A stretch of 64,000 nt of DNA, taken from NCBI RefSeq assembly GCF_003790525.1, contig NZ_CP033635.1; one strand, written 5' to 3'. This document shows, piece by piece, positions 16,898 to 19,800 of the stretch; the stretch's first letter is position 1; each line of letters starts with the position of its first letter. This stretch comes from Escherichia coli. GTDB lineage: Bacteria > Pseudomonadota > Gammaproteobacteria > Enterobacterales > Enterobacteriaceae. The notes beneath the pieces are model-generated. The model saw only the letters and a program-made list of their open reading frames with translations. It made no database searches and had not been told where the DNA came from. The translations under genes were made by a program, and so were the position numbers.

Positions 16898-19800
16898 TTA
16901 CTCAACAGGTTGCGGACGCGCAGGAGCGGCAGAGGCATGATGCGTTGCCGTATGACCTCCTGCGGCACCTTTGCCTTCGAAGGCAAAAGTAGGGCGCTGC
17001 CAGTCACTGTGACGCGGTGCCTCCGGAACATATTCCGGTGCCGGAGCGCGCGTCATTGGCGCGGTAGCGTGGTTATGCTCAACGGTGATCTCTGGTTCAA
17101 CCGCGGCTACCGTTTCAACTTCTGCTGCGACTGGTGCGGCAGGTTGAGCAACAACTTCAGGTTCAGCAACCACAACCTCAGCAGTTTCGGCAACTTCTTC
17201 AATATCAGCCGTCTCTTCCTGCGGTTCAACTACCGGTTCTGCGTGTTCTGCAACTTCCTGGGCTACGGCAACATCAGACTCGGTAATCACCTGCGGCTGT
17301 TCAGTTACCGCGGCGGCAATTACTTCAGGATGCGTCGTTTCAACCACTTCCGGTTGCGGTTCGGCAACGTGAACGGGGGCTTCTACGACTTCAGCCACTT
17401 CTTCAACAACCGGTGCGCTAACAACCGGTTCGACAGCGGCGGCGACAGGGACCTCAGTCACCATCGGCTGCACTTGTACTTCTTCCTGTTCGCGCTGCTC
17501 TTCAACCTGTACATCTTGTGGACGTACAATCGGATAGCGGATCCAGACTTTGCCAGAGGCCAGTTCCGGAGACGCGCACGCTACGGTCAACGGCATTGGC
17601 GATTGGGTTGGATAACGCTCGTCACGATAGCGACGACGACGCTGACCACTCACGCGCAGGTGACGAGGCGAGCGGCGAGAACGACGCGGCATGCCACCGT
17701 TGTCACGGTTATCGGCATTGTTCTCTTCTTGCTGTTCTGGTGCAGCTTGCGCTACGACTGGCAGCGGGACTTTCACCAGTTCTGTGCGTGGAGCTGGCGC
17801 TTCCTGAACAATTGGTTCGCCAGCGACAGTTTCTTCAACCACCGGTGCGACTACCGCTTCTTCGGCTACGCTTTGCTCGTAACGCACTTTCTGATTGAGC
17901 TGACGCTGTTTACGACGCGGCTGAACCGGACGTACACGTTCTTCCTGTTCGGTTTCCTGAACAGATTGCTCTTCAACATTCAGCGCCTTCGCTTCTTGTT
18001 GCGCCTGACGTTTATCATCGTTACGGCGGCGGCTACGTTCACGACGCGGCGCTTGCTGCTCGTCGGTGGTACGCGCTTTTTCCGTTACCTCAGCCTGCTG
18101 ACGGCTCTCACGCGTCTCGACAGTCTGCTGCTGTGCCTGGCGACGATTACGACGGTTTTCTTCGCGATTATCGCTGCCTTCTGTACGTTCACTACGGGAG
18201 TCGCGGCGCTCATTACGGTCACGGCGGTTGTTCTGACGAGGCTTGCGACGATCCTGTTGACGTTCCGGTTTCGCTTCTGCTTTCGGTGCTGGTTGCTCGG
18301 CCGGTTTGGTTTCTTCACCACCGCTGAACAGCGCTTTCAGTGCGCCGAAGAAGCGGCTCAACAACCCTGGTTGTGCAGGAGATGCTGGTGTTGCCGTTGC
18401 AGCTTTAGGTGCTGGGGCTACAACAGGCGCGGCAGGTTCAGCTGGGGTTGGCGCTGGCGGCACATCCGGCATGGCAAAGGTTGCCAGCGCAGGTTGTTCC
18501 GGACGCTTACGTTCAGCGAACTCTTCTTCAGACGGCAGCGCCATCGCTTCTTCATGCAGCTTCGGCAGCATGTAGCTTAAGGTTGGAGTTTCTTCCCCTT
18601 TACGCACGCGCAGCACATGGTAGTGCGGGGTTTCCATCTGATCGTTTGGCACAATCACACAGCGCACGCCGTCCTGACGAGTTTCAATCGCATTCACTGC
18701 AGAACGTTTTTCATTCAGCAGGTAAGACGCGATTGGCACAGGAACAATGGCGTGAACTTCCTGAGTGTTCTCTTTCAGCGCTTCTTCTTCGATCAGACGC
18801 AGAATAGAGAGCGACAACGATTCGTTGTCACGCACGGTACCAGTACCGGAGCAGCGCGGGCAGACGTGATGGCTGGATTCACCCAGTGATGGGCTCAGAC
18901 GCTGACGGGACATTTCCAGCAGGCCAAAGCGAGAAATATGGCTGATTTGAATACGCGCACGGTCCTGACGCACCGCTTCACGCAGACGATTTTCTACCGC
19001 ACGCTGGTGGCGTACAGGCGTCATGTCGATGAAGTCGATAACAATCAGGCCGCCGAGGTCACGCAGGCGCAGCTGACGAGCAATCTCATCGGCAGCTTCG
19101 AGGTTAGTGTTAAACGCGGTTTCTTCGATATCGCCGCCGCGGGTCGCGCGTGCGGAGTTGATGTCGATGGCCGTTAACGCTTCGGTGCTGTCGATAACAA
19201 TCGAACCACCGGATGGCAGACGAACTTCACGCTGGAAGGCGGACTCGATCTGCGACTCGATCTGGTAGTGGCTGAACAGCGGGATCTCGCCGGTGTACAG
19301 TTTGATTTTGCTGCTGAAATCCGGGCGGCCTAATGCAGCGATATGCTGACGTGCCAGTTCGAGCACTTTCGGGTTATCGATAAGGATTTCACCGATGTCC
19401 TGGCGTAAGTAATCGCGGAATGCGCGAACGATTACGTTGCTCTCCTGATGAATCAGGAACGGAGCCGGGCGGCTTTCAGCGGCTTTTTTGATGGCTTCCC
19501 AGTGTTTCAGACGGAAGCTTAAATCCCATTGCAGCGCCTCAGCAGATTTGCCGACGCCAGCGGTGCGCACGATAAGCCCCATGCCTTCCGGCAGTTCAAG
19601 GCTTGCCAGTGCTTCTTTTAATTCGGTACGGTCGTCGCCTTCGATACGACGAGAAATGCCACCCGCGCGCGGGTTGTTCGGCATCAGAACCAGATAGCTA
19701 CCCGCCAGACTGATAAAGGTGGTTAATGCCGCGCCTTTGTTGCCGCGCTCTTCTTTATCGATCTGAACAATGACTTCCTGACCTTCACGCAACACATCTT

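Follow-up and report, generated by a model that had tools for sequence, protein, structure and literature searches.

The rne locus and its neighbors

The window, a stretch of 64,000 nucleotides of Escherichia coli DNA (contig NZ_CP033635.1), codes for RNase E on the minus strand at 16898..20071, where the open reading frame list gives an rne coding sequence of 3174 nt with 1057 codons and a stop. The locus is organized in the K-12 order, with rluC (20644-21603) upstream and flgL (14933-15886) downstream, the exception being a toxin-antitoxin pair located between rne and flgL. The rne 5′ untranslated region contains the autoregulatory element rne5 (Rfam RF00040; 20096..20432, minus strand), which is matched over its full length (1-333) at 260.1 bits against a gathering score of 180. 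In K-12 MG1655, rne (b1084) is 3186 nt long and codes for 1061 aa, and the two protein lengths from which the earlier note started are thus both correct. K-12 Rne (NP_415602.1, 1061 aa) is the product of the same gene and has in common with the window the rluC/flgL synteny, the 5′ element, residues 1 to 558, and five of the mapped scaffold segments described below (MTS, HBS, AR2, EBS, and PBS), but the window protein is four residues shorter and has 15 amino acid substitutions, all located within 559-999 in a global protein alignment. In the DNA alignment there are 75 nucleotide substitutions over the whole gene (about 2.4%).

The window protein contains the Pfam domains S1 (48.7 bits), RNase_E_G (330.4 bits, full length), RNase_E_G_Thio (108.5 bits), and PNPase_C, and thus has both the S1 and the RNase E/G catalytic domains required of an Enterobacteriaceae Rne. 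The CPxCxGxG Zn-link and the small (thioredoxin-like) domain are also present, with CPRC at residue 404, as in 33 of the 33 species scored. The catalytic half (codons 1-529; 18485..20071, minus strand) is identical in amino acid sequence to that of K-12 and differs from it by 29 synonymous and no nonsynonymous codons; together with the domain matches, the Zn-link, and the identity of residues 1 to 558, this agrees with the description of this half as standard in the earlier note. The noncatalytic scaffold half (codons 530-1057 and the stop; 16898..18484, minus strand) carries a single four-codon gap and has 30 synonymous and 15 nonsynonymous codon differences from K-12, a contrast that is expected where constraint is strong on a catalytic domain and relaxed on a disordered segment. 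The opposite strand has a 556-aa open reading frame with a TTG start (16910-18580, plus strand) that spans the entire scaffold-coding half of rne. Rather than being a gene, this frame most likely reflects a bias toward GAA, GTT, and GCN codons, which leaves the strand opposite rne free of stops.

The type II toxin-antitoxin pair between rne and flgL (15981-16764, minus strand) codes for a TacA-like DUF1778 antitoxin (Pfam TacA1, 79.7 bits) and a GNAT acetyltransferase toxin; the same site in K-12 contains nothing but the flgO sRNA and intergenic DNA. Among 5,426 complete E. coli genomes, 685 carry the module between rne and flgL. Compared with strain SMS-3-5, the antitoxin gene of the window (16472-16764, minus strand) is frameshifted by a C6-to-C5 homopolymer change at 16535-16539 (a G-run on the plus strand), which replaces roughly the last 22 residues; the toxin gene is identical to the intact copy of SMS-3-5, and a toxin left intact next to a disabled antitoxin would call for an explanation.

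A four-residue gap in the acidic spacer of the scaffold

The scaffold half of K-12 RNase E has six mapped microdomains, the membrane-targeting sequence (MTS, 565-582), the RNA-binding segments AR1 (604-644) and AR2 (796-814), and the RhlB helicase-binding (HBS, 719-731), enolase-binding (EBS, 834-850), and PNPase-binding (PBS, 1021-1061) sites (PMC4435900), and all six are present in order in the window, five of them with amino acid sequences identical to those of K-12. The MTS (18326..18379), HBS (17879..17917), and AR2 (17630..17686), all on the minus strand, are unchanged, as is the EBS (17522..17572, minus strand), which has no nonsynonymous differences. The PBS, at window residues 1017-1057 (16901..17023, minus strand), likewise has no nonsynonymous differences and is matched by Pfam PNPase_C at residues 1018-1054 with 62.8 bits. 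AR1 (18140..18262, minus strand) has one conservative change, T625S, which is the only one of the 15 substitutions located inside a microdomain. The noncanonical partners that have been mapped (Hfq, CsdA/SrmB/RhlE, RraA, RraB, MinD, RapZ, and PAP I) all bind inside residues 1-843 (PMC4435900). The suggestion that an indel here might change partner-binding microdomains is therefore not borne out. From the identity of the catalytic half and the binding motifs, the window protein is predicted to be an active endonuclease and to assemble RhlB, enolase, and PNPase into a degradosome.

A single in-frame 12-nt gap accounts for the whole length difference in both the protein and the DNA alignments, with K-12 residues 981-984 (VVAE) missing from the window. 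The K-12 DNA at the site reads CCA GTA GTC GCT GAA GTC GCA GCA GAA and that of the window CCA GTC GCA GCA GAA, and the junction is at approximately 17128..17133 (minus strand), where a retained AGTCG is one copy of a flanking 5-nt repeat. Of the neighboring four-residue units VVAE|VAAE, one is lost and P-V-A-A-E-V remains, such that the P-V-x-A-E pattern is regenerated and the local sequence character around the gap is preserved. An in-frame indel in the acidic region of the C-terminal scaffold that is rich in Pro, Glu, and Val is what the earlier note had anticipated, and the gap lies inside the interval to which it had assigned the difference (16898-18500, codons ~524-1057, in the noncatalytic half); the K-12 alignment that it proposed yields this one four-residue gap, outside the helicase-, enolase-, and PNPase-binding segments.

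The gap falls between the EBS (834-850) and the PBS (1021-1061), in an acidic spacer rich in Ala, Glu, Pro, and Val (AEPV) at window residues 851-1016 (17024..17521, minus strand), and is outside every mapped microdomain and conserved island. The spacer is composed of 25% V, 22% E, 17% A, and 10% P, with a net charge of −35, and the distance from the core of the enolase motif to the core of the PNPase motif is 156 aa in the window and 160 aa in K-12. In an alignment of 78 enterobacterial Rne proteins from species-representative genomes, residues 851-1061 include two conserved stretches, an island at ~906-945 and a C-terminal block at ~1005-1061, and the segment around the gap is of low complexity, gappy, and poorly conserved. 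P980 and V981 have 90% and 60% identity to K-12 across genera, an apparent moderate conservation that is inflated by the alignment of low-complexity sequence.

Between genera, the spacer from EBS to PBS varies from 143 to 205 aa among 33 species, with the Zn-link fixed at 404 and the PBS block fixed at 52 to 54 aa from the C terminus. The AEPV region has been described as disordered, biased in composition, and elastic (PMC4435900), and the variation between genera described by Ait-Bara, Carpousis, and Quentin (PMC4435900) is in this same region and of the same type, with gain or loss of short low-complexity units; their comparison was of species and orders, however, whereas the window allele is a within-species polymorphism at 2%. 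Within E. coli, the rne gene is 3186 nt long in 58 of the 60 genomes that were drawn at even steps along the ranking. In-frame indels in the repeats of this region, which the earlier note held to be common, are thus common between genera, but not within E. coli, where 98% of genomes have the K-12-like long junction and Tandem Repeats Finder reports no array at the site.

The rare length variants that are seen (1053, 1057, 1063, and 858 aa) all have changes that lie in the AEPV-rich region or reach into it. A 1053-aa E. coli form (P0013/P0015 set, window-Rne cluster) lacks residues 911-918 (ETTHPEVI), inside the conserved spacer island, and a 1063-aa Shigella flexneri form (P0013/P0015 set) has an additional AD at 955. 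The urine isolate E. coli GN4738 (NZ_CM177114.1, L083:1501-4077) codes for a natural 858-aa RNase E without K-12 residues 743-945; the deletion is between two PVVE-encoding direct repeats, with a 13-nt overlap of the BLAST pieces, and it removes AR2 and the enolase-binding site while the RhlB and PNPase sites are kept. This scaffold variant is much more consequential than the window allele.

Frequency, polarity, and origin of the short allele

A 41-nt probe spanning the junction, for which long alleles are unable to supply the 28-nt seed, matches exactly 108 of 5,426 complete E. coli genomes (2.0%), all at 100% identity. With a 120-nt probe across the junction, short alleles were scored at ≥99% identity and long alleles at 80 to 95%; 108 genomes are in the first class and 5,288 of 5,396 in the second, and every long match that was sampled spans 132 nt or a trimmed equivalent. 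Among the rne matches in these genomes, 5 of 5,425 are on plasmid-labeled records, which are probably mislabeled or misassembled replicons, and one genome has no rne match. Carriers of the short junction include SMS-3-5, a strain named ST648, and MS6198, which we take to belong to phylogroup F.

The allele is already well represented in public data. The exact protein is RefSeq WP_023141578.1 (strain XDL) and UniRef A0A229EW22, and is present on 882 contigs; this 1057-aa E. coli ribonuclease E entry has no differences from the window protein. At least 21 complete genomes, XDL and at least 20 others among them, have an annotated rne that matches the window at 100% identity along all 3174 nt, and in 92 genomes the full-length gene matches it at 99% or more. 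SMS-3-5 is 99.98% identical to the window over 9.2 kb, and the sole difference of its Rne (WP_000827403.1) from the window protein is G576S (L002:4726, equivalent to window position 18346), inside the membrane-targeting helix at 565-582, where both the window and K-12 have Gly. A literature search for natural rne polymorphism found none.

Could the shorter reading frame be an artefact of assembly, sequencing, or start-codon choice, as is always a general possibility and as the homopolymer frameshift in the antitoxin gene of the same window might encourage one to ask, the probability is close to nil: the ATG start, the N terminus, and the rne5 element are those of K-12, which rules out a different start codon, the lengths do differ, and the gap is 12 nt long, in frame, and outside any homopolymer, with an identical 41-nt junction in 108 independently assembled complete genomes and the exact protein on public contigs, so that the gap is real.

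The short form is the derived state, a deletion, because Escherichia albertii, a divergent E. coli, and the great majority of E. coli genomes keep the 12 nt. The E. albertii sequence reads CCG ATC GTC GCT GAA GTC GCG GCG AAA (PIVAEVAAKV) and that of the divergent E. coli representative (L003) CCG GTA GTC GCT GAA GTC GCA GCT GAA (PVVAEVAAEV), both long. The opposite polarity, with an ancestral short form and a 12-nt tandem duplication (VAAE to VVAE-VAAE) in K-12 and most other E. coli, draws on the resemblance of the two adjacent K-12 12-nt units (GTAGTCGCTGAA and GTCGCAGCAGAA), which are identical at 8 of 12 positions and look like an old duplication. It is nevertheless highly improbable, given that the outgroup and the divergent E. 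coli are both long and that the 98% of E. coli with the long form include many lineages (ST131, O83:H1 strain NRG 857C, O157:H7, and K-12); any duplication therefore predates E. coli, and the window state is a secondary loss.

The sequence at the site also bears on how the deletion arose. The long, B2-type haplotype of NRG 857C, CC-AGTCG-TCGCTGA-AGTCG-CAGC, allows six equivalent placements of the deletion, which correspond to a 5-nt direct repeat spaced 12 nt apart, whereas comparison with K-12 allows four equivalent placements and a microhomology of only 3 nt; the 5-nt repeat holds only if the ancestral haplotype was B2-like. For NRG 857C, the probe identity of 90.9% (120/132) implies no mismatch beyond the gap, but direct comparison, which is relied on here, has one synonymous difference, GCG versus GCA, at codon 979. 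Loss of the 12 nt most likely occurred by slipped-strand or microhomology-mediated deletion between two AGTCG repeats 12 nt apart, slipped-strand deletion being typical of such a substrate. Polymorphism of a slippage-prone tandem array is rejected, as Tandem Repeats Finder (minimum score 30) found no array at 17100-17160, the K-12 units match at only 8 of 12 positions, and only a 5-nt direct repeat flanks the site; the sole call by this program is a weak 2-copy 12-mer at 18247-18270.

The deletion most likely arose once and now marks a sublineage that includes SMS-3-5 and ST648 strains. The identical junction in 108 genomes and the 92 near-identical whole genes are as a single origin would predict, although in 16 of the 108 carriers full-length rne falls below 99% identity to that of the window, and recombination or more than one origin may have been involved.

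The antitoxin frameshift has a different distribution. It is present in just 2 of the 685 module-bearing complete genomes, 2015C-4136CT1 and E686, where the genes are annotated as 'frameshifted' pseudogenes, and both have a long rne; linkage of the short rne to the frameshifted antitoxin is thus rejected, and the frameshift either has arisen more than once or is a sequencing error that recurs at this homopolymer. The complete-genome set contains no strain with the combination of short rne and frameshifted antitoxin found in the window.

Consequences for the degradosome

The deletion removes 4 of ~160 disordered residues (2.5% of the spacer) and one negative charge. Using a polymer-scaling estimate in which the end-to-end distance is proportional to N^0.59, the reach of the tether would be reduced by ~1 to 2% (about 1.5%). 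The N-terminal half of RNase E is alone essential, and laboratory strains survive the deletion of large parts of the scaffold (PMC10804669). The laboratory alleles rne131 and the rneΔ10 to rneΔ24 series are likewise in-frame losses in the noncatalytic half that leave the catalytic half intact and the cells viable (PMC10804669), but these take out entire microdomains, with losses of tens to hundreds of residues, whereas the window allele lacks four residues and no motif. Because a flexible spacer of ~160 residues is shortened by 2.5%, no binding motif is touched, and larger scaffold deletions are viable, the allele is likely to be neutral or nearly so, and judged on its sequence a functional effect of the 12-nt deletion is unlikely. 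A literature search for the rne coordinates 844-1045 found none. The Δ10 deletion of the series of Leroy et al. (2002), which comprises rneΔ10 to rneΔ24, reportedly removes about residues 844-1045.

A shorter and slightly de-acidified tether could instead be functionally meaningful, tuning the positioning of PNPase or the clustering of degradosomes and being selected in the lineage. PNPase is at the far end of the spacer and is tethered at the periphery of the membrane-bound degradosome, hovering at a distance from the membrane (PMC7613265), the near-invariance of Rne length within E. coli hints at constraint, and lineages with clinical success, such as ST648, are among the carriers. This is nonetheless improbable, as the change in reach is so small by the scaling estimate, genera that share these motifs differ by more than 60 residues in the length of the spacer, the deletion leaves the local sequence pattern intact, and the frequency fits hitchhiking on a clonal lineage. 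The more specific proposal, that in the SMS-3-5/ST648 group the acidic tether of PNPase was shortened under selection, as a tuning of the geometry or clustering of the degradosome peculiar to this lineage, and is not a neutral hitchhiker, is a shade less probable still; if true, the length of the E. coli RNase E spacer would be under stabilizing selection that the SMS-3-5/ST648 group has escaped or reoptimized.

The reading that we favor with high confidence is that the single in-frame 12-nt deletion in the disordered acidic spacer is a natural, derived rne allele, most likely the product of one slippage event, which serves as a lineage marker and is functionally neutral or nearly so. The rne gene of the window is an ordinary, already cataloged allele with no change to the degradosome scaffold. 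RNase E is nearly invariant in length within E. coli, yet the same spacer is very elastic between genera, and the 41-nt junction provides a clean molecular marker for the carrier lineage. With the catalytic core and every partner-binding motif intact, the four missing residues need no special explanation.
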